A DNA stretch of 55,503 nt, taken from positions 1 to 55,503 of IMG/VR virus record IMGVR_UViG_3300026851_000044, one strand, 5' to 3'. Under the pieces are notes generated by a model that saw only the letters and a program-made list of their open reading frames with translations, made no database searches and was not told the DNA's origin. Of this stretch, positions 9,122 to 49,596 are shown piece by piece. Numbering within the stretch: the stretch's first letter is position 1; each line of letters opens with the position of its first letter. The stretch is from a virus. Its lineage: Duplodnaviria > Caudoviricetes. Both the position numbers and the translations under genes were made by a program.

Positions 9122-10399
9122 TTATCGACAGTTAACTGTCCACAACTGGTCCAAGCGCGTGGTATAGCTTTGGCTCATCATTTCCCGTCGCATGCCCCAA
9201 TCTGGATTGCTCGGCACACTCGCAGCCCGGAGCGTCCCCCTCCCCCACCGGCCATTGATTTCATCCAGCACCGCCATCACTCTTGTCGCCTCAGTAGGCT
9301 GAGAAGTGGCGAACAGATCGTCTGTATATTCACTTGGCTGGCATAGATTCAGTAGGATGACTTCCGCTTTGCTGTAACTGAAACCAAAACGAAATACACG
9401 ATCTAGTGCATTGACGGCTGCAGTGGTCAAAAGCCGAACGTCATCAGTTGGGTAAGGCAGATCCACCACGACACCATTCGCATATTTAGCCTCATCGGGG
9501 TTGAACATTCCGGTGCGGATGCTGACCCGAATCTTCTTGCACAGCGAATTTTGTGCCCGGAGCTTTTCCGATGCCCGCATCATGTAAGTCGCCACCGCTT
9601 CCTTGATTGGGGTCAGCTCCTTCAGCCTTTTACCGAACATCCGGCTGCAGCAGATCTCCTGCTTTGGCGGATCCGGCTCATCCAGCTCCAGGCACGGCGT
9701 GCCGGCCAATTCCCGGGCAGTTTTCTCGATCACCACGCTGAAGTTTTTTCTTAACGTCCACGGGTCGGCCTTGGCCAGATCCATTGCGGTCTTGATCCCC
9801 ATACCATCCAAGTGCATTTTCATGCGCCGGCCTACTCCCCACACCTCCGCTACGTCCGTATTACGCAGCACCCAGTCGCGCTTGATTGGGTCGCAGATGT
9901 TCACAACGCCACCGGTTTGCGCCTGCAAGCGTTTGGCGGTGTGGTTGGCCAGCTTGGCTAGGGTCTTGGTATGCGCGATGCCGACACCGACCGGGATGCC
10001 CGTGCAGCGCAGCACTTGGCTGCGGATCTTGCGGCCGAGGGCGTCCAGGTCATTAATGCCGGTGAGGTCGACGAAGGCTTCGTCGATGCTGTAAACCTCA
10101 ACGGCGGGTACCATCGACTCGATCAGCGTCATGACACGCTCACTCATGTCACCGTAAAGCGCATAGTTCGAGGAAAACGGGACGATGCCATGCTGCTTGA
10201 GCTTGTGCTTGATCTGGAAGTACGGCTCGCCCATTTTCACGTAGGGCTTTGCGTCGTAGCTGCGGGCAATGACGCAGCCGTCGTTGTTCGACAGCACCAC
10301 GATAGGCACCTTGGCGAGGTCAGGGCGAAACACGCGCTCGCAGCTGGCATAGAAGCTGTTGCAATCGATCAGGCCGAATACCGGCGGCACGTTAGACAT
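9122..10399 (-). CDS. umuC: Y-family translesion DNA polymerase (UmuC/RulB)
   Basis: LIDCNSFYASCE, VLSNNDGC, YSIDE motifs; C-terminal W-MRRE...YTT. Confidence 0.95.
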   Translation of the reverse strand: MSNVPPVFGLIDCNSFYASCERVFRPDLAKVPIVVLSNNDGCVIARSYDAKPYVKMGEPYFQIKHKLKQHGIVPFSSNYALYGDMSERVMTLIESMVPAVEVYSIDEAFVDLTGINDLDALGRKIRSQVLRCTGIPVGVGIAHTKTLAKLANHTAKRLQAQTGGVVNICDPIKRDWVLRNTDVAEVWGVGRRMKMHLDGMGIKTAMDLAKADPWTLRKNFSVVIEKTARELAGTPCLELDEPDPPKQEICCSRMFGKRLKELTPIKEAVATYMMRASEKLRAQNSLCKKIRVSIRTGMFNPDEAKYANGVVVDLPYPTDDVRLLTTAAVNALDRVFRFGFSYSKAEVILLNLCQPSEYTDDLFATSQPTEATRVMAVLDEINGRWGRGTLRAASVPSNPDWGMRREMMSQSYTTRLDQLWTVNCR

Positions 10400-24813: not shown

Positions 24814-25398
24814 TTAATGCTTGTGGTGGTTGTCGCTGTTGCCGGCGGCCATGATGTTGCCAGCGCCGTCGATGTTGCCCGTTACGGATAGCGGGCCGTC
24901 GATATTGACAGGCCCTTTGATATTCACGGCCGCTTCAAGATCAATCGTTCCCGACTTCACCGTTACCGCGTTATCCGTAACGACGACGTCCGTGCCGCCG
25001 ACCTTGATCACCACCGTGCCACTCGGCAGGGTGATGGTGTAAGACTTGGCCTGCCAGTCGTAGACCAGCGAGCCGCCATCGTCAAAACGCCAGACCTCGA
25101 CATGGTCGCGATTATCTGGCGGCGGCCCGGCATTGCCATACAAGCCCGGGACAAACGTGCCTTGTGACACGTCACCGCTGGGACTGATCAAACTGCCCTG
25201 CTCGCCCAAAGACGGCGCCCGCCAGTGCCTGGCCTTGCCGGCGGCGATGCTGTGCCACCGCACCCAGGCGCTGACCCATTCACTGCCATCCGACACGCGA
25301 CATACCGGCGGCGAAGCGGACAGATCCACCGCGACCACGTAGCAAGCCTTTACCGCACCCGCGATCATGCGGTCATGCTGGGCGCTCGCGTAACTCAC
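24814..25398 (-). CDS. Baseplate assembly protein V (spike)
   Basis: WRAPSLGEQ, FDDGGSLVYD, C-terminal HHKH. Confidence 0.92.
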   Translation of the reverse strand: MSYASAQHDRMIAGAVKACYVVAVDLSASPPVCRVSDGSEWVSAWVRWHSIAAGKARHWRAPSLGEQGSLISPSGDVSQGTFVPGLYGNAGPPPDNRDHVEVWRFDDGGSLVYDWQAKSYTITLPSGTVVIKVGGTDVVVTDNAVTVKSGTIDLEAAVNIKGPVNIDGPLSVTGNIDGAGNIMAAGNSDNHHKH

Positions 25399-34723: not shown

Positions 34724-34919
34724 AAAAACCGGCCATTTGGCCGGTTTGTTGTACCGCTCTCTGCGGTCGCACCTATCGAAGATGACTACTTTTTACAGGT
34801 CGATTCCGGTGGCAGCAACCCTGTTTTAATGCCACCCGGTGAATAAGTGGGTAACGCAGGGTGAACGCCTAGCGAATGTCGGCGAATACACCACCACGGC
34901 ATTCTGTTGTTGCGGCGGT

Positions 34920-37790: not shown

Positions 37791-38007
37791 GGATGGCCTC
37801 CATGATCTCCTCGACCTCCTGGCAGCTCACGCATTGCGTGCAGCCAGGAACAGCTAAACGCCGCCCCTCGGGAATTGGGCTGTCGCAGTTTTCACAGAAT
37901 AGAAACGAATGCGCCGCCAATGCAGGTTTAGCGGCGTTGCGTGCAGCGAGCGCCTGATCGATACGCTCCTGCACCAGGTCATTAGCGAAGTCAGCAATGT
38001 CAGCCAC
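37780..38007 (-). CDS. TraR/DksA C4 zinc-finger protein
   Basis: ADIADFAND...CENC..PIPEGRRLAVPGCTQCVSCQ. Confidence 0.9.
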   Translation of the reverse strand: MADIADFANDLVQERIDQALAARNAAKPALAAHSFLFCENCDSPIPEGRRLAVPGCTQCVSCQEVEEIMEAIHAR

Positions 38008-38518
38008 GATCAACACCCCGCGTCGTCTGGTTGACATACGTGGCGCGGTTGAACAACCCCAGCAGCCCCTGAATCCCACGGAACACCTGCAGGCGAATCG
38101 CGGCGAGCTCCTCATCGGAAACAACCCCGTCGCCAATGCTCTTGGCCCAGGTATCCGCCAGATCCGCCACCTGCCGGAAGTACTCGGCAATCCCGGTGGT
38201 CAACGTCTCGGGCATGTCATTGGTGTACGCCTCAGCCAGCTCCTGCCAAGTCGTGTCACCGACCAACGCATGCACCGCATCCAGAATGCGGCGATCCTTG
38301 GTTAGCTCCAGAATCTCACCGAACTCTTGAATGTTCACAGTGTGGCTAGGATGGGTTGGGGAGAGCTTGTGCTGCAGCGTGGTCGCATTCCGGCCGGTGG
38401 TGGCGGCGATGGCTGCGGCGCCGCCGGGGTAGTCCCGAGCGGCATGGTAAAGCGCGAGATCGAGCGGCAAAACTTCCCGCTGCGCCCGCTCAACAGAACT
38501 CAGAGCGATACGGCTCAT
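38000..38518 (-). CDS. Phage regulatory CII-family protein
   Basis: YPGGAAAIA...TLQHKLSP, DGVVSDEE; downstream of cro. Confidence 0.8.
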   Translation of the reverse strand: MSRIALSSVERAQREVLPLDLALYHAARDYPGGAAAIAATTGRNATTLQHKLSPTHPSHTVNIQEFGEILELTKDRRILDAVHALVGDTTWQELAEAYTNDMPETLTTGIAEYFRQVADLADTWAKSIGDGVVSDEELAAIRLQVFRGIQGLLGLFNRATYVNQTTRGVDRG

Positions 38519-38578
38519 GGCATTAATCCTTGTAAGTTGCCAGTGCCGCGCGACATGCAGTGGTGATACATTTGCCGC

Positions 38579-38846
38579 GTGGCTTGAAGAGGCCCAAACG
38601 CCGGCTAGATCTTAGGGATCGATACCGGCACCGTGCCGGGGCGAGCAATCCATTGCTCACCCCTGGCGCAACAGCTGCCAAATCTGTGGTGGAAGAGGCA
38701 GCAACACCAAGGCTTCCAAGCCTTGGAAAAGCGCGATAAAGAGAGGTGGTTGCATGTGGTGTGCCCGCCTATCTTTATCGCGACCCGACAGCGCTGTGGT
38801 GGTGCGTGCCGGGAGGAACTGGGCGACCTTTGGGTCGCCTTTTTTC
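38579..38846 (+). ncRNA. Putative structured antisense RNA with three UGUGGUG loops
   Basis: Series of hairpins whose G-U pairs favour the + strand, ending in terminator GGCGACC-TTTG-GGTCGCC-T6; TG-n-TACATT -10 at 38564-38572. Confidence 0.55.
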
Positions 38847-38849
38847 TAC

Positions 38850-39083
38850 CTATGCCACGTTGCGAAAAGATTGAGCCTCAGTAACGCCGAAGTGTTCCAA
38901 CACCTCACCAAGAGAGACCTTTCCCTCACTTTCGCGAGCCAAAGACTTGATCAACGACACGCTAGGATCTTTGCTCGCATATTTTATGTGAAGACGCAGA
39001 TAGCTCACGGCAATGCCGCAGCGCTTTGCGTACGCTTTTTGCGCAGCATGGTCTAGGTGATGAATGTAATCGCGAAGCTTCAT
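38850..39083 (-). CDS. Cro-like HTH regulator
   Basis: 77 aa, YAKRCGIAVSYLR HTH, divergent from the repressor. Confidence 0.8.
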   Translation of the reverse strand: MKLRDYIHHLDHAAQKAYAKRCGIAVSYLRLHIKYASKDPSVSLIKSLARESEGKVSLGEVLEHFGVTEAQSFRNVA

Positions 39084-39106
39084 GTGCACCCCCTTACTCG
39101 CAACAT

Positions 39107-39161
39107 TAACCTTTAAGGTTACTTTTTTCAATACCTCCAAGGACATTCACCTTCTAGGTTA
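39107..39161. promoter_or_regulatory. cI/cro operators (ACCT-N3-AGG palindromes)
   Basis: TAACCTTTAAGGTTA (39107), ATACCTCCAAGGACA (39131), TCACCTTCTAGGTTA (39147). Confidence 0.7.
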
Positions 39162-39180: not shown

Positions 39181-39828
39181 ATGAAAATTTCTGATACTCG
39201 CCTAAAAAACTTCCGACGCCTCTTAGCCGACAAAAAGCTGAGATTGACCGATATCGCGGATCTATTAGGCAAGGCACCTGCTCAAGTGAGTGCTTTCGGC
39301 GGGAAAAATCCAAGCAAAGGTATCGGCGATCAAATTGCTAGAGAAATTGAGAAGGCTTTGAACTTGCACCAAGGCTATCTCGACATGCCATTTGGTCTTG
39401 GCGAACTCAATAATGCTACGGTATTGACCATCACTGGCCGAAAGCTGCCAGTGATTGGCCCTATCGCAGCAGGAGCATGGTGCGAATTCAAGGGTGAGAT
39501 TGATCCCAGAGAGACTGAAGAATGGATTGATGCGCCCGGTCCAGTTGGCCCTAATGCATTCATACTTCGAGTGCAAGGAATAAGTATGGAGCCTAAGTTT
39601 TTTGAGGGGGATAAGATAGTCGTTGACCCTTCACTTGAAGCCCTACCAGGCCACTTCGTAGTGGCAAAAAGGGCGAGTGATGAGGCTGCAACGCTTAAAC
39701 AATTAAAACAGGAAGGTAATGAGCATTATCTTTATGCTCTCAATCCAGACTGGCCAGATAGAATTATTCGTTTGACGGAAGACTGGAGTATATGCGGAAG
39801 GGCGCGCTGGAAAATTTCTGACCTGTAA
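39181..39828 (+). CDS. CI-like repressor (HTH plus S24 peptidase)
   Basis: N-terminal HTH, IAAG cleavage site, GISMEP Ser, TLKQL Lys. Confidence 0.93.
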   Translation: MKISDTRLKNFRRLLADKKLRLTDIADLLGKAPAQVSAFGGKNPSKGIGDQIAREIEKALNLHQGYLDMPFGLGELNNATVLTITGRKLPVIGPIAAGAWCEFKGEIDPRETEEWIDAPGPVGPNAFILRVQGISMEPKFFEGDKIVVDPSLEALPGHFVVAKRASDEAATLKQLKQEGNEHYLYALNPDWPDRIIRLTEDWSICGRARWKISDL

Positions 39829-41280: not shown

Positions 41281-41307
41281 TTGACAAAAATTAACCTTGA
41301 AGGTTAA
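41281..41307 (+). promoter_or_regulatory. Early promoter -35 with repressor operator
   Basis: TTGACA at 41281-41286 followed by the palindrome TTAACCTTGAAGGTTAA matching the cI/cro operators. Confidence 0.7.
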
Positions 41308-41343
41308 TTTTTGCTTCCTCTCCACCACAGAGCGAAGCAAATT

Positions 41344-41520
41344 ATGCACACCACAGCAACCCTGCACGTCCATCCGGCCGCTGCCAACCCCTTCCAAATC
41401 TTTGAGATCCGACGCCTAGCTCGCGAGTGCGGCTGCGCGTTCGCCATCAGCAAACAGAAGCTGACAGCACGCACCACTCCTGCCCCAGTCAATCCGAACG
41501 GCGGAGGGCATGGAGCATGA
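41344..41520 (+). CDS. Small early-operon protein
   Basis: MHTTATLHVHP...PNGGGHGA; overlaps the next start. Confidence 0.6.
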   Translation: MHTTATLHVHPAAANPFQIFEIRRLARECGCAFAISKQKLTARTTPAPVNPNGGGHGA

Positions 41521-42107
41521 TCAAGTACAAAATCGACAACCGCACCCTGCAGCTGCTCAATGCTCAGGTCAACCTGACCGAAACTTTCAACCACGTTCTA
41601 CGGACCGCGCCCAAGCGCGAGTGCCTGGCGTTTCGCCTCAAGGTTGAACGTGGCATCTCAGAAAGCACCTTCGTCGTGGAGCTGGGCAGCGAACGCCACA
41701 CGCTGACCCTGCCGAACGAAAAGAAGATGCATCTCAAGCTGGCCGACTTCATCGAAGAGATCGCCAACGGCCCGTTCGATGCGAGCAATACCAGCGACCT
41801 GCTGCACCGTCCCCACGCCAGCCGTGAATATGGCCGCTTTGATGTATCGGATAAGCAGCGGGTGTTCGAGCTGGTGCGCACCGGTGGCGTGCTTAACCTC
41901 GACATGGGTTTTGACTACCCGCTAATTGTCGCGCTGCACCGCACTCAATCTCGATCAGGTGTCACCACCATCCTGAGCATCGGTAACAAAAGCCCGCACA
42001 CCCGTTGCTTCACCGTGTACGGCAGCGATGTCGAGATCTACGGCAAAGTCAGCGAGTCCATCAACCACCTTGCAGCAGCGGCAACACCAGCTGCGCACGC
42101 GGCATGA
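41517..42107 (+). CDS. Hypothetical early phage protein
   Basis: GGAG RBS, MIKYKIDNRTL, phage-like codon usage. Confidence 0.7.
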   Translation: MIKYKIDNRTLQLLNAQVNLTETFNHVLRTAPKRECLAFRLKVERGISESTFVVELGSERHTLTLPNEKKMHLKLADFIEEIANGPFDASNTSDLLHRPHASREYGRFDVSDKQRVFELVRTGGVLNLDMGFDYPLIVALHRTQSRSGVTTILSIGNKSPHTRCFTVYGSDVEIYGKVSESINHLAAAATPAAHAA

Positions 42108-42117
42108 GGGGCACACC

Positions 42118-42402
42118 ATGGAACGCACCCTCGCCCAAGCCGCAACCCACCTCGGCCTGACTCGCCCGAAGCTCATCGCACGCATGCGTGAAAAAGGTCT
42201 CCTCAACGATCGTAACCTACCGGCCTATCCCAACCGTGATCGCGACTATCTGCGCATCAAGGACGGCCAGTGGTACCACGATCAGCTCGGTATGCAGTAC
42301 AGCCAATCGACCCGGATCAAACATCCCGGTATCCGTTGGCTGGCTGAACAGTTGGGAATCGACCTACCCGCCATTCCGGCAGACAGCCGTGACGTGGCCT
42401 AG
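42118..42402 (+). CDS. Antirepressor KilAC-like domain protein
   Basis: TLAQAATHLGLTRPKLIARMREKGLL...NLP...TRIKHPGIRWLA. Confidence 0.75.
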   Translation: MERTLAQAATHLGLTRPKLIARMREKGLLNDRNLPAYPNRDRDYLRIKDGQWYHDQLGMQYSQSTRIKHPGIRWLAEQLGIDLPAIPADSRDVA

Positions 42403-42568
42403 GGAATACGCCCGCCAGATCATCGCCATGCGGACACGAGAGGAGCGCAACGCCGCGCTCCTCAAAGTGCCCGAACATCTGCGCGAGCTGACCAGAACGC
42501 ATTGCCTGAACGCCTGGAACCACCCGGCCAGAAAACAACGCAAGGAGGCCCAACAAAGCCATGAGTAA
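42389..42568 (+). CDS. Small hypothetical phage protein
   Basis: WPREYARQII...ERNAALLKVPEHLR; coupled to both neighbours. Confidence 0.6.
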   Translation: MTWPREYARQIIAMRTREERNAALLKVPEHLRELTRTHCLNAWNHPARKQRKEAQQSHE

Positions 42569-42878
42569 CACAGCACAAAACCCGCTACGCCTGCACCCGG
42601 CGCCGGAATCAGCCACCGTCGAATTGCTTTACCGCATCTTCGGCGACGTCCTGATTCCACTCGACAAAGTGCGCGAGCAGTACTTCCGCAACCTCAACGA
42701 GCAATCCTTCGTCGCCGAGATCAGCAGCGGCCGCATCCAGCTCCCCATCACCACGTTGGACACCAGCCGCAAGGCACCGAAGTACGCACACATCCGGCAC
42801 GTCGCCTCACTGATCGACATCCGCGCCTACAAGGCCGACGAAGACATGCAGCGACAGCAGGATGACACCAACGAGTAA
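42561..42878 (+). CDS. PrtN-family DNA-binding protein
   Basis: TVELLYRIFGDVLIPLDKVREQYF...SRKAPKYAHIRHVASLID. Confidence 0.8.
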   Translation: MSNTAQNPLRLHPAPESATVELLYRIFGDVLIPLDKVREQYFRNLNEQSFVAEISSGRIQLPITTLDTSRKAPKYAHIRHVASLIDIRAYKADEDMQRQQDDTNE

Positions 42879-42935
42879 CACCCAAAACCGAATGGCTGCC
42901 ACCACCAGCCGAAGACTTCCTCAGGAGCACACCAC

Positions 42936-43403
42936 ATGACCACAGTTCAAATTTACGCCCTGATAGCAATCGCCATCATGATCGCCGGCGTTTATTGGCT
43001 CGCCTACCGGCACGGCTTCAGCAGCGGCCGAGCCGAGGGACATTCAGAGGGCTACAGCGATGGCTATGACGTTGGCGGCTGTGTTGGGTATCGAGACGGC
43101 CAAGCGAGCCAGAGCGCTGATAGCGCGGAAGAAATCCGCAACTCGCAGCACACCCTTGATCAGGCGCACGACCAACGCAAGAAACTCTACACCCACTACG
43201 AGCGCGCCTTGGCTGCCTCAAAACTTGGCGAACAGGAACGACTGACCCTACTGGAAATCGCCGAGAAACTCCGGATCGCATCCGAAACGTTTAGCGCCTT
43301 CCGCACCGGCAAAAAGCTGGAGCGCGACACCCGCACACTCCGCGACCAGGCGCTCGCCATAGCTGCCCTGCTGGAACCGGCCGAACAGGAGAACGCCGCA
43401 TGA
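42936..43403 (+). CDS. Hypothetical membrane-anchored phage protein
   Basis: N-terminal TM, GxxxG repeats, coiled coil; AGGAG RBS. Confidence 0.7.
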   Translation: MTTVQIYALIAIAIMIAGVYWLAYRHGFSSGRAEGHSEGYSDGYDVGGCVGYRDGQASQSADSAEEIRNSQHTLDQAHDQRKKLYTHYERALAASKLGEQERLTLLEIAEKLRIASETFSAFRTGKKLERDTRTLRDQALAIAALLEPAEQENAA

Positions 43404-44443
43404 GCGAGATCCGTCCCCAATCCAGCACCCACTTCAACCCGGCTAACTCTCAATCAGCGATTGATGCACAAACGCGCACTCAAATCTCGGAGGAAAGCGG
43501 CATGCAAATGGACCAGCACGACACCCAAACCACGACCGCTTTGCTCCGCAAGGAAACCAGCGTCGACACACTAGAAACAAACAGTCTCTGCTGCGCAGCA
43601 GCAGGCATTATTGCTCCTTCCAGCAGCACCACCGAGGCGCTTATACCCCACGAAAAGCTGCGCGAGGCAGCGACCCCCAATGCCACGCTAAACGCTCAGA
43701 ATCGCCCGCCCGCGCAGCCTGTTGAGGGGGATAAAGCTCATCATTGGGAGATGTCATCCTGCGCAAGCAGCATTGATTCGACAGCGAGCCTTTTCAGCCG
43801 CCATAGCAGCTGCCTCCATGTCATAAATAATGAGCATGGAAATGCCACCAGGCTTCCCTGCCTGAATCGACTGAACTCCATGAAGAACATCTCTGACCGC
43901 GGCACGAAGTTCGAGCCAGCCTATAGCGGCTTCAGCTCGGGGAACTTCATTGAACTGTACTTCACGCATCAAGTAGTCACAATCGCGCAAAGAGACCTCG
44001 AACCTAGTCACCATGCGTTTGTCGCTAGAATTGTCAGTAAGGTAGCTACTGGCATTAAACGATACATCAGCGACGAAATTCGCGACGACAAACAACTTAT
44101 CCAAAAGCTCTCTCTCTGCCTGCTTCGCAGCTTTAGAAGCCCGCTGGTTCTGCGAACTGGCGACAGCAATTGCCACGATGATCGCAAGCACAGACCCCAC
44201 CGCTTGCACCCATGCGGCTGCGTCTTTCTTTGCATCAAAAGCATCAAGCAATACAAAAAGAGCCCACCCCAGTGCACCGGTAGCCAAAAACAGCCACACC
44301 ACCCAAATCGTGGCTGTGCTCATAAACGGTGGCAATTTCAAACGTTTCATTCAAGCCGGCCCCTCGCCATCAAAAGATCCGCGAGATTGCCCACTTTCAT
44401 CACTCTCGTCTACGAAAGTCACATGATGGAGGTTGCGGCGTGA
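43400..44443 (+). CDS. Hypothetical early protein overlapping an antisense gene
   Basis: Start and stop are coupled to flanking genes (ATGA, GTGA); the central part is the antisense of 43754-44350. Confidence 0.45.
   Translation: MSEIRPQSSTHFNPANSQSAIDAQTRTQISEESGMQMDQHDTQTTTALLRKETSVDTLETNSLCCAAAGIIAPSSSTTEALIPHEKLREAATPNATLNAQNRPPAQPVEGDKAHHWEMSSCASSIDSTASLFSRHSSCLHVINNEHGNATRLPCLNRLNSMKNISDRGTKFEPAYSGFSSGNFIELYFTHQVVTIAQRDLEPSHHAFVARIVSKVATGIKRYISDEIRDDKQLIQKLSLCLLRSFRSPLVLRTGDSNCHDDRKHRPHRLHPCGCVFLCIKSIKQYKKSPPQCTGSQKQPHHPNRGCAHKRWQFQTFHSSRPLAIKRSARLPTFITLVYESHMMEVAA
43754..44350 (-). CDS. 2-TM membrane protein (moron)
   Basis: AAWVQAVGSVLAIIVAIAVA membrane motif followed by a helical domain. 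Confidence 0.7.
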   Translation of the reverse strand: MKRLKLPPFMSTATIWVVWLFLATGALGWALFVLLDAFDAKKDAAAWVQAVGSVLAIIVAIAVASSQNQRASKAAKQAERELLDKLFVVANFVADVSFNASSYLTDNSSDKRMVTRFEVSLRDCDYLMREVQFNEVPRAEAAIGWLELRAAVRDVLHGVQSIQAGKPGGISMLIIYDMEAAAMAAEKARCRINAACAG

Positions 44444-46111: not shown

Positions 46112-47200
46112 TCAATATAGCCGCTTTAACCATGACCAGTTCTCATAACTATTTCCTCGGCCTCTTAAATGCGTATACCGTCTCAACGAATTCCAATCTC
46201 TATGCCCGGAGACGCTCGACACTCTCGGAATATCCCAGTCCATTTCAAACAGCCGGCTCACCCCTTCATGCCGCAAATCATGGAAATGCAGATCCTCAAT
46301 GCCGAGCATAGGGCACGCCCTGGTGAAAGAGGCGGAGACCGACTTTGCGTTGTAGGGAAAGATCTCTCGTTCGACCTTGGGCATGCTCTGCAGAATTGCC
46401 CAAGCCTCATCCGGTAGATGACACCACACGTCATTGCCGATCTTCTGACCGGGATTCTTCATATCGCGCACCAGTACAGCCTGTCGCGAATCGTCGAGAT
46501 CATCCCAGCGAATCCTTGTAATTTCTTCCTGCCGACGTGTCGAAAAGAGCGCGAAAGCGATCACCTTCGGCATGTCGATCTGAGCCTTGCGGCGCTCCTG
46601 CATTTCGAAGAAATGCTCCATGAGCTTGTCCAACTCCTCGAGCGTCGGCCGGCGGTTACGCTCTTTGCTCTTGCTCACCATGCCTAGTTTGCGCAAGACC
46701 TTGCGTGCGTCAGGCATGGCCAGCGGATCCACTTCGTAGCCCCATGCTGGTCTCGCCACGGATAGGACTGCGCCTAGGTGCGAGAGATCATTGCCAACCG
46801 TCTGCGCCTGGACGCCGCCGCCTTCCTTACCCATCCGCCACTGCGCAAACTCCACCAGCTTCTGGCTGGTCAGTGCCGAGTCATCAAGGTCGCCCAACCA
46901 GGTATCTTTGATCGCAATGAGTGTGGCGTTCTTTGTCTTACCCAACGGCCGGATCTTTTCGTACTCGTCCAGGTACTGCTCGATCATCTTCCTGATCGTC
47001 ACACCCTTACGGTTAGCGCGCTCAATCGCACCAGGCTCGGCCAGCTCCGTCTCCCGCCGTTTGATCCAGGCCTGGGCAATCTGCTTGCGATCGAAGGTTT
47101 GGCTTTCCTGATAAACTGTGCGCCCGTCTCGATTGATCCGTATCTGCGCCGTGTAGGCAGTCGAATTGTCCTTGCGCTTGCGTGATGTGATCGTGCCCAT
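46112..47200 (-). CDS. Tyrosine integrase (dusA-associated type)
   Basis: RRQEEI Arg, HFHDLRHEG, SGHRDW, RRYTH; divergent from a replacement dusA 5' end. Confidence 0.93.
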   Translation of the reverse strand: MGTITSRKRKDNSTAYTAQIRINRDGRTVYQESQTFDRKQIAQAWIKRRETELAEPGAIERANRKGVTIRKMIEQYLDEYEKIRPLGKTKNATLIAIKDTWLGDLDDSALTSQKLVEFAQWRMGKEGGGVQAQTVGNDLSHLGAVLSVARPAWGYEVDPLAMPDARKVLRKLGMVSKSKERNRRPTLEELDKLMEHFFEMQERRKAQIDMPKVIAFALFSTRRQEEITRIRWDDLDDSRQAVLVRDMKNPGQKIGNDVWCHLPDEAWAILQSMPKVEREIFPYNAKSVSASFTRACPMLGIEDLHFHDLRHEGVSRLFEMDWDIPRVSSVSGHRDWNSLRRYTHLRGRGNSYENWSWLKRLY

Positions 47201-48074: not shown

Positions 48075-48404
48075 ATGAACAATAACAATAAAAAAGGCAG
48101 GCCAACTCTTGATGCTTCAAAACGTCGAGACAAGCCACTCATCATTCGCTTAAGCGAGAAAGAGCGGGCAATTATAAAAGCCAAGTGCGAAGAAGCAGGC
48201 TACCAAGCTGCAGGGGCATTCGTGCGTGACGTCTTAGTGAGTTCGAAGGTGACGGGCAAGGTGCGCATCCCACTGTCGCACATCCAGCTCTCGGTAGAGC
48301 TACAGCGAATTGCAGGCCTTATTAGCAAAGGCCAAGACATCGAGGTAGTTGTACAGAAGCTGGTAGATATCAATAACCGCCTCTTGGGCATTGGAGAATT
48401 ATAA
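48075..48404 (+). CDS. MobC-like ribbon-helix-helix relaxosome protein
   Basis: KGRP...RDKPLIIRLSEKERAIIKAK...FVRD; GGAGG RBS; immediately upstream of the relaxase. Confidence 0.8.
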   Translation: MNNNNKKGRPTLDASKRRDKPLIIRLSEKERAIIKAKCEEAGYQAAGAFVRDVLVSSKVTGKVRIPLSHIQLSVELQRIAGLISKGQDIEVVVQKLVDINNRLLGIGEL

Positions 48405-48405
48405 G

Positions 48406-49596
48406 ATGATTGGGAAAATCACGGACAAGGGCGTGGGCTCCTTCCGGAACCGTATCGAATATATCTTCGGACTACGGAAGCACGAGCATGCCCTTACAAC
48501 AATTCGAACCATTGGCCGGAACTGCTTTTCGCCTGACCCGCTTCGCAATGGGCACGACAAAGACAAGATCGATGTCGAGGGGATGATTTCAGAGTTTGAT
48601 ACTGTTGAAAAATTAAGAAATAACGCCATCGACTCAGATCGTGTGGTGAAGCCCGTTTGGCACGCCATCCTGGCACTACCTCCAGGTGAGCACTTGGACG
48701 ACCAGCAATGGCGCGAAGCGATCGAGATGTACCTATCCGACCTTGGCTTCAGCGACCTGAACAAGTGGGTTGCGGTGCTCCACGGGGACACAGACCACGA
48801 GCATGTCCACATCGTCGCTAATCGCATTCGTTTAGATGAAGAGTTTTCCATGGTCAAGGACTCAAACGAGCGGTCGCGCAGCTGTGATTCCAAATCCAAG
48901 ATTGAGGATAACTTTGGCCTGAGTAAAGCCCCTGCACCCTCAGAAACGTGGGGAACAGCCATCTCCCGCAACGCCCTGGAAGCCGCTGAACGCGAAGGCA
49001 CGATTGCCCTGAAACACCGTATGATCGCAAAAATCGCAGGTGCCGTAGAAGCCTGCCAGGCCCAAGGCGGCGACATGTTCATGCTCATCCAGCTCCTGCG
49101 CCGGCAACAGATCTACGTCCACTTCACGAAGAACGCCGAGGGTCAGCCGACAGGCATTAGCTACGAATACAACGGCACCATCATCTCAGGCCGCAAGCTG
49201 AAACGCTCCAGGCTCACATTCCAAAAACTGACCCAACAAGAAGGCATCAGCTATGCCCCCGAAACCTTTCCAAGCCTTGAGGCTGAAGCTGCTCGAAGAT
49301 ATAGCGAACACCAAGAGCGAATCCGAGTTTTCTATCTCGTCCTCCGCGCCCGCAATCGTCGAGCCATCCGTCTCAGCATCGCAGTACAAAACCAAAAAGA
49401 GCTCGAAGCCACGATCAAGCTGATCATCGCCTTGCTCCTGAGCCTTCTGGGCATTCGAGCAAATTGGGAGCTTGAAGACAAAAAGCCCGGCGAGACCTAC
49501 TACCAACTGCGAAGCGACTGGATGACGATGCCTAGGGTCGAACAGGAGCAGGATCTGGGCATGGCCTGGGAGAATGACCCGGCGCTGGCTCTGTAA
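48406..49596 (+). CDS. Relaxase/mobilization nuclease (MOB-P-like)
   Basis: MIGKI...IEYIF catalytic Tyr; PVWHAILAL; HGDTDHEHVHIVANRI HUH motif. Confidence 0.92.
   Translation: MIGKITDKGVGSFRNRIEYIFGLRKHEHALTTIRTIGRNCFSPDPLRNGHDKDKIDVEGMISEFDTVEKLRNNAIDSDRVVKPVWHAILALPPGEHLDDQQWREAIEMYLSDLGFSDLNKWVAVLHGDTDHEHVHIVANRIRLDEEFSMVKDSNERSRSCDSKSKIEDNFGLSKAPAPSETWGTAISRNALEAAEREGTIALKHRMIAKIAGAVEACQAQGGDMFMLIQLLRRQQIYVHFTKNAEGQPTGISYEYNGTIISGRKLKRSRLTFQKLTQQEGISYAPETFPSLEAEAARRYSEHQERIRVFYLVLRARNRRAIRLSIAVQNQKELEATIKLIIALLLSLLGIRANWELEDKKPGETYYQLRSDWMTMPRVEQEQDLGMAWENDPALAL

Follow-up and report, generated by a model that had tools for sequence, protein, structure and literature searches.

A predicted three-loop RNA encoded between cro and cII of Pseudomonas prophages changes together with distant sites in the early-left operon

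A conserved, structured RNA element is predicted in the spacer between the cro-like gene and cII of a lambdoid Pseudomonas prophage (positions 38579–38846, plus strand, about 268 nt), and its three loops are complementary to sites on the mRNA of the early-left (pL) operon that lie 2.5–4.1 kb away, beyond cro, cI and a SIR2-like gene. The conservation of the element, its structure, its strand bias and the compensatory changes that link it, loop by loop, to these sites were all observed in related prophages. We consider it likely that the element specifies a plus-strand RNA that pairs in trans with the pL mRNA; its expression, its strand in vivo and the direction of any regulation have not been shown. 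A sequence-only reading of the same DNA had proposed a trans-acting plus-strand RNA directed at the early-left operon, and that proposal is supported by the joint changes of loops and distant sites in relatives.

The stretch of DNA analysed, referred to below as the window, is an IMG/VR provirus record of 55,503 nucleotides that holds the lambdoid prophage. The element occupies most of the 331-bp spacer between the cro-like gene (38850–39146, minus strand) and cII (38000–38518, minus strand), whose product belongs to the 186/CP76 family of CII proteins (PF06892). Beside these two genes the minus strand also carries a DksA/TraR-like gene and a primase-helicase gene, and on the other side of cro lies cI, with an S24 domain (39181–39828, plus strand). 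Between cI and pL there is a minus-strand SIR2-like gene (PF13289, 39868–41187), likely an accessory gene of defence type, and the length of the interval that holds it differs among relatives. The pL operon follows on the plus strand (about 41316–44443) and encodes, in order, a 58-aa protein, a member of PHROG 15582, a KilAC antirepressor-like protein with its true start at 42118, a PrtN/excisionase-like protein, a 155-aa protein and a 347-aa protein. The last of these was ruled out as the integrase, which is encoded at 46112–47200 on the minus strand. As a UmuC gene (9122–10399, minus strand) and a MobP-type relaxase gene (48391–49596, plus strand) both fall beyond the prophage core, the provirus record probably extends into neighbouring elements. 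The non-coding segment 34920–35200 contains GTCCCAC and GTGGGAC motifs repeated in both orientations, which may be late-activator binding sites or an origin.

The element comprises a promoter-like site, eight hairpins, three of which carry a GUGGU core, and an intrinsic terminator. Three hairpins that present TGTGGTG in the loop, followed by a terminator, had been described in the sequence-only reading and all were found at the positions it gave. The 5' domain (38581–38669) consists of hairpins at 38581–38594, 38601–38628 and 38633–38669 and is supported by compensatory pairs, in which GAGCAAT/ATTGCTC is replaced by GAACGAT/ATCGTTC, with further examples in alignment columns 96–106 and 126–150; in relatives of one loop variant, class D (see below), this domain is replaced by a different one. 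Downstream of it lies the loop 1 hairpin (38674–38702), with stem GCTGCC/GGCAGC and loop AAATCTGTGGTGGAAGA, which has TGTGGTG at 38685–38691. A hairpin without a target motif (CCAAGGCTTCCAAGCCTTGG, 38707–38726; compensatory pairs in columns 199–217) separates it from the long-stemmed loop 2 hairpin (38732–38782; apex TTGCATGTGGTGTGCCC, TGTGGTG at 38755–38761), and this is followed by the loop 3 hairpin (38784–38813; apex GCGCTGTGGTGGTGCGT, TGTGGTG at 38795–38801), which ends 7 nt ahead of the terminator. The terminator (38821–38846) has an 8-bp stem with 6 G–C pairs and a run of six T residues on the plus strand only, and both stem and T-run are strong and nearly invariant in alignment A1. This alignment contains 96 sequences, one from the window and 95 chosen from 141 distinct copies in relatives, with pairwise identity capped at about 97%.

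The plus strand of the element folds with an energy of −137.6 kcal/mol (z −7.3), which none of 200 shuffled sequences matched. RNAalifold returned 81 consensus pairs for A1, and 29 of the 81 show compensatory changes on both sides of the pair. When the 61 consensus pairs within the predicted RNA were scored across the 96 sequences there were 781 G–U cells against 82 A–C cells, which bears out the earlier claim that G–U pairs favour the plus strand. The consensus energy likewise favours this strand (−75.2 kcal/mol, against −61.2 for the minus strand), and one terminator stem pair (columns 325–335), which is G–U in 53 and A–U in 40 of the 96 sequences, is compatible with the plus strand only. 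The program-listed open reading frames that overlap the element have a broken frame in 40–69 of the 96 relatives. From the fold, the compensatory pairs, the G–U bias, the terminator and the broken reading frames we conclude that the three-loop element is conserved, structured, non-coding and read from the plus strand.

Related loci were collected through the CII protein, which gave 160 in all (80 of 498 viral-contig and 80 of 89 genome-contig relative stretches). The full element is present in 144 of these Pseudomonas prophage loci, at 80–99% identity; in the others the spacer is cut by a contig end or the sequence is more divergent. Two loci (L082 and L108) come from the type strain of P. koreensis, which carries the element. 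It was also matched in 57 of 401 sampled Pseudomonas species genomes at E ≤ 1e-37. This sample covers the genus only, and three genomes were added to it by hand; it includes one genome (G375) in which the match is limited to 24 nt resembling the terminator.

The five complementary sites listed in the sequence-only reading (41321–41330, 41346–41355, 42111–42118, 42894–42910 and 42927–42938) all have the sequences it gave, and we refer to them as T1 to T5. T1 belongs to a hairpin at the 5' terminus of the pL mRNA (41313–41338) with the loop CCACCAC, the complementary stretch being TCCACCACAG at 41321–41330. T2 (GCACACCACA, 41346–41355) begins right behind the ATG at 41344 and covers codons 1–4 of the first pL gene (41344–41520, 58 aa), a reading frame that is 55–59 aa long in 105 of 106 loci; T2 is part of the coding region, and either loop 2 or loop 3 could pair with it. 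T4 is the hairpin GGCTG-CCACCAC-CAGCC (42894–42910), the stem of which covaries (GGACTG/CAGTCC, GGCCG/CGGCC and CGCTG/CAGCG in relatives), and it stands 13 nt 5' of the Shine–Dalgarno (SD) sequence of T5. T5 itself (42923–42938) consists of the SD sequence AGGAG followed by GCACACCACATG at 42927–42938, which takes in the ATG at 42936 of the 155-aa gene (42936–43403, with the PrtN-like gene upstream). Relatives differ freely in the sequence between T4 and T5 but retain both motifs. The 347-aa gene (43400–44443) starts so as to overlap the stop codon of the 155-aa gene. The 155-aa protein matches only PHROG families of unknown function, with no usable family from Pfam, NCBIfam or the ESM Atlas, and the 347-aa protein gave no match in Pfam, PHROGs, NCBIfam or ESM Atlas clusters.

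The sequence of loop 1 (UCUGUGGUGGAA) complements that of T1, at the extreme 5' end of the pL transcript, in the loop and the 3' side of the stem. Loop 2 (GCAUGUGGUGUGC) complements 12 nt of T5, from SD to AUG, as well as 10 nt of T2, and loop 3 (UGGUGGUG) complements 8 nt in and beside the T4 loop. With equal base frequencies, about 0.007 occurrences of any particular 12-mer would be expected in 2 × 55.5 kb. The predicted duplex energies of loop 1 with T1 (−26.6), loop 2 with T2 (−29.4) and loop 2 with T5 (−28.8) were not reached by any of 500 shuffled targets in each case; that of loop 3 with T4 (−21.1) was reached by 59 of 500 and is not distinct. In a window-wide ranking on both strands, with the element's own antisense excluded, T1 and T5 came second for their respective loops, each being outranked by one unrelated site. 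The motif CACCACA is not enriched in the window as a whole (12 occurrences against 7.2 expected, a number reached in 8 of 100 shuffles) and three of its six plus-strand sites fall in the 41.3–43.0 kb region; CCACCAC is enriched (17 against 7.0 expected, reached in none of 100 shuffles).

One of the proposed targets did not hold up. The start of the KilAC antirepressor-like gene (T3, 42111–42118; GCACACCA, ending in the ATG at 42118) had been put forward as a site of action, and the complement is conserved in only 14 of 131 loci: these have 10 nt complementary to their own loop 2, and the other 117 have 3–7 nt. T3 was rejected as a general target, and on this sequence comparison the antirepressor-like gene start is probably not one. 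The conserved targets, as far as they can be inferred in this way, are the pL leader with the first gene (58 aa), and the 155-aa gene. Another candidate, CCACCACA at 24822 on the minus strand, lies at a gene end ahead of a terminator and not at a gene start, and was set aside.

The evidence that bears most directly on pairing in trans is the joint variation of loops and targets, which the sequence-only reading had proposed as a check. Pair states were scored in the 147 loci with a cleanly delimited element; depending on the site, no target was found in 34–62 of these, partly because flanks were short or gene content differed. For loop 1 and T1 (113 loci in which both were found) the states were GG/CC in 92, AA/TT in seven, GG/TC in seven, GG/AC in five, and GG/CT and AA/TA in one each. 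Loop 2 and T5 (95 loci) gave GG/CC in 87, TT/AA in five, GG/CA in two and GG/CT in one, and loop 3 and T4 (85 loci) gave G/C in 71, A/T in seven, G/A in five, and T/C and G/T in one each. Thus some loci have imperfect pairs, for example the five with GG/AC at loop 1/T1 and the five with G/A at loop 3/T4. A variant loop facing an unchanged partner was never seen for the first two pairs, there being no AA/CC among the 113 loci for loop 1/T1 and no TT/CC among the 95 for loop 2/T5.

Compensatory change of loop and target occurs at six position pairs and in three variant classes (B, C and D, against the common class A). A loop 3 of GTGGTGA, with G changed to A after GTGGTG, accompanies a T4 loop of TCACCAC. 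In classes B and D loop 2 and T5 change together, and T2 reads GCAAACC. Class D, known from three genomes, was found after the other classes, and its loop 2 (GUGGUUU) is matched by AAACCAC at T5 in three of three loci, as predicted; the different 5' domain of this class contains an extra loop with 11–13 nt complementary to the class D T1. Loop 2 has at least 12 nt of exact complement to the T5 of its own locus in 89 of 95 loci, whereas pairs made across classes average 4.1 nt. On a tree of cII, class C forms nearly one clade and class B is scattered; the independent compensatory events are therefore few and their number is uncertain, and each variant class may represent a single evolutionary event. 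With that reservation, the compensatory loop–target changes, which are drawn from sequence comparison alone, support pairing in trans with the early-left operon sites and are the decisive evidence for it.

The same observations bear on the possibility that the RNA acts mainly in cis, as an antisense to the cro–cII spacer of the pR mRNA (through cleavage or convergent transcription interference), with the distant matches being incidental. Given its position, the element is complementary over its whole length to the cro–cII part of the pR mRNA, and the promoter of the element faces pR as pE of phage 186 does. However, an explanation of this kind accounts neither for the change of each loop jointly with its own distant site nor for the retention of T4 and T5 amid variable sequence, and the cII ribosome site lies outside the RNA. 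We therefore regard a principally cis-acting RNA as unlikely. A cis effect may well be a second function, since the full complementarity to the spacer would also allow the RNA to act there.

An inverted repeat, TGGCA-N15-TGCCA (38518–38542, plus strand), abuts the cII start codon and is a putative CII binding site. Its half sites, TGGCA at 38518–38522 and TGCCA at 38538–38542, have centres 20 bp apart and stand near −59 and −39, counted from where the RNA is predicted to start. They are followed by an extended −10 element (TG-A-TACATT, 38564–38572) without a good −35, from which a start at about 38579 is inferred. Both half sites are invariant in the 96 sequences of A1, as are positions T46, G47, T49, A50, A52 and T54 of the extended −10, and in five divergent loci (L181–L185) the half sites are kept with a variable spacer and TGnTACAnT stands at an unchanged distance from the repeat. 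In one of these loci, L185, which comes from the same genome as L158, a partial second copy of the element lies in tandem 5' of the TGGCA-N15-TGCCA site, with loops that resemble loop 2 and loop 3. The TGGCA-N15-TGCCA repeat recurs without mismatch at 34810–34834, within the long interval that separates early from late genes, and at least 132 of 147 loci retain this second copy; neither strand has a −10 there at the distance found in the RNA promoter. A candidate target near it, ACACCACCACGG at 34889, is not kept in relatives that share the same loop 3 and was rejected.

CII of phage 186 binds an inverted repeat with half sites two turns apart at −38 and −58 of the pE promoter (PMC6593788). 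From the GenBank features and the sequence of 186, pE adjoins the cII start and faces pR. The CII protein encoded in the window belongs to the same Pfam family as that of 186, and the site described here has both the geometry of a 186-type CII-activated promoter, with half sites two helical turns apart near −38/−58 of the predicted start, and its placement, at the cII start and firing towards pR. On these two grounds we infer a CII-activated promoter; CII dependence has not been shown, and basal activity from the extended −10 is not excluded. A promoter with the geometry of 186 pE suggests that the RNA may act at the lysis–lysogeny decision and not as a constitutive immunity RNA. The comparison with the P4 CI and P1 C4 immunity RNAs made in the sequence-only reading thus stands for the pairing logic and perhaps fails for the timing.

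What is not shared with pE is read-through into cI, because the conserved terminator at 38821–38846 precedes both cro and cI. This matters for the idea that the element is the leader of a CII-dependent establishment transcript, in which pairing with the pL mRNA would control read-through of the terminator and cI would be the output. 186 pE and lambda pRE share this topology, with cI downstream on the same strand, and only 7 nt separate loop 3 from the terminator. Yet the terminator stem and T-run are strong and nearly invariant, the RNAalifold consensus contains no alternative anti-terminator fold, and pairing over an SD–AUG region is typical of a repressor RNA. Moreover, RNA-library contigs of relatives diverge one or two bases past the terminator (38847/38848), so that leader and cI are not one conserved unit. 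We find the leader explanation hard to sustain.

This point of divergence appears to mark a sharp mosaic joint between a module made up of cII and the RNA and the immunity module next to it. The pL-like promoter (TTGACA-17 nt-TTAATT, 41281–41309, plus strand) overlaps the palindrome AATTAACCTTGAAGGTTAATT, the half sites of which recur in the cI–cro region; the RNA layer therefore lies beside control by CI, in agreement with the earlier suggestion that it acts in addition to CI. Relatives keep the −35 TTGACA of pL and the transcribed T1 hairpin and have at least three operator types. Together with the divergence right after the terminator, this indicates that the RNA circuit is common to heteroimmune phages.

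That the motifs, instead of pairing as RNA, are protein sites on the DNA or merely short inverted repeats in it is very improbable: TGTGGTG and CACCACA are indeed one double-stranded site in two orientations, but a change in the specificity of a protein should shift all sites jointly, whereas here each loop follows its own site or sites alone (T1 for loop 1, T5 and T2 for loop 2, T4 for loop 3), and the motifs sit in hairpin loops, on stems that covary on one strand, and at an SD–AUG. The change of each loop with none but its own partner favours RNA pairing over a shared protein site.

In the mechanism that we propose for pairing in trans, an RNA of about 268 nt would start at the promoter that abuts the cII start and stop just before the 3' end of cro. 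Loop 1 would form a kissing contact with T1, the loop of the hairpin at the 5' terminus of the pL mRNA. Loop 2 would pair at two places, covering the SD–AUG of the 155-aa gene at T5 and codons 1–4 of the first gene at T2, and loop 3 would kiss the loop of T4, whose hairpin precedes the T5 SD by 13 nt. Such pairing would be expected to block initiation of translation and lower expression of the pL operon; silencing is inferred from the coverage of the SD–AUG and has not been shown. If CII activates the promoter as at 186 pE, which is also an inference, the RNA would be an effector of the lysogeny decision.

A broader interpretation is that the loops and targets form a specificity code that is independent of the repressor and acts across heteroimmune relatives, with the classes as incompatibility groups of polylysogens and CII as the trigger at the decision. 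It rests on the sharing of one RNA class by at least three CI operator types and on the rare classes B, C and D with their matched changes, and we offer it only tentatively, as a possibility that remains doubtful. Among genomes with a single copy of the element (n = 46) there were 40 of class A, three of class C, one mixed and two unclassified. Seven of the eight genomes with two copies have two different classes; this set includes one genome (G001) that was picked with its two copies already known. The class difference between co-resident prophages is a hint of compatibility and is suggestive only, as class is confounded with phage lineage.

Evidence of transcription is limited. Part of the window stretch is contained in 17 RNA-labelled runs, and in contigs from two of them, belonging to two studies (X1 and X10), the word depth of 38653–38802 is 10–17 times that of flanking contigs. 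The metatranscriptome evidence (four runs) consists of contigs, which give no strand, start or end, and the parts that they do not cover are uninformative. The higher depth inside the element is a weak hint of a transcript.

The sequence-only reading had not recognised the element as a described family, and our searches agree with it. At the Rfam gathering score the only C4 match in the window is at 1853–1939 on the minus strand, with none at the element, and a search of 38400–39000 at E ≤ 10 gave neither C4 nor isrK; the best match was MicX, whose 17 bits fall short of the cut-off (75). The C4 match is a genuine antisense RNA of that family (RF01695, 79.8 bits) beside tail-gene fragments and an HNH gene, and looks like what is left of a different prophage, with no relation to the cro–cII element. 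No match to the 331-nt spacer was found by blastn in 50,697 phage records, among which near-identical records may be absent. A full-text literature search found no such RNA in temperate Pseudomonas phages, nor do the available passages of a review from 2025 on small phage RNAs (PMC12197685) mention one. The few cases of RNA-based control in temperate phages that we know of are c4 of P1/P7, CI of P4, sar of P22, and OOP and aQ of lambda, none of them, to our knowledge, in Pseudomonas.

Comparison with these systems places the element closest in logic to the c4 RNAs of P1 and P7 (RF01695, clan CL00128), in which exposed loops also pair in trans with separate sites before early genes. In c4, loop specificity is set by a few differing bases, with matching target changes between related phages (PMC12197685), and the element agrees with this in having loops complementary to separate sites and matched changes between related phages. 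It differs in that the C4 covariance model does not match it even at E ≤ 10, whereas the true C4 copy in the window scores 79.8 bits. It is also longer (about 268 nt, against 77 nt), has three loops, and comes with a promoter-like site and a terminator of its own. A further difference is one of position: C4 stands at the head of its target operon, from which it is released by processing, and the element, between cro and cII, belongs to another transcription unit, with its targets past cI. The P4 CI RNA controls the early operon by pairing with repeated complementary leader sites; it is cut from the same transcript that is under its control, and it acts by making that transcript terminate prematurely. 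The element is instead a separate unit and two of its sites cover start codons, and we found no terminator after T1/T2, where the sequence past the hairpin is AAATTATG.

The promoter resembles 186 pE and lambda pRE and paQ in lying by the cII start and being convergent with pR, and CII-activated promoters in general in its inverted repeat (half-site centres 20 bp apart, near −39/−59) and poor −35; its half sites are TGGCA/TGCCA, as against ATGTTTG/CAAACAT in 186. The transcripts of 186 and lambda run into cI or act only in cis, whereas the element stops before cro and has its partners in trans. The product of lambda paQ is a CII-dependent antisense RNA against a lytic gene, and P22 sar and lambda OOP are small phage RNAs that limit the antirepressor or cII by pairing (PMC12197685). 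The last two, unlike the element, are cis-antisense RNAs with a single target each. As expected of a trans-acting small RNA, the element has a conserved single-stranded seed complementary to conserved translation-start sites. In the OxyS–fhlA interaction two OxyS loops contact two mRNA sites, the ribosome binding region and a hairpin loop. OxyS is a host stress RNA of unrelated sequence, and the element has three loops, directed at two target modules within a single operon.

We conclude that this is a real, widespread and previously undescribed phage RNA, which follows the pairing logic of P1 c4 and P4 CI without being a member of either family. What is new about it is that CII is the likely trigger, that it has three loops and that it forms a transcription unit of its own. 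Natural compensatory changes reveal its pairing partners directly, and its specificity classes amount to ready orthogonal pairs of RNA and target that suggest a testable cause of prophage compatibility. The element links the cII side and the pL side of the genome, which are separated by a freely exchanged immunity region, and if its promoter is CII-dependent then CII gains a trans-acting RNA effector of a kind not described so far.
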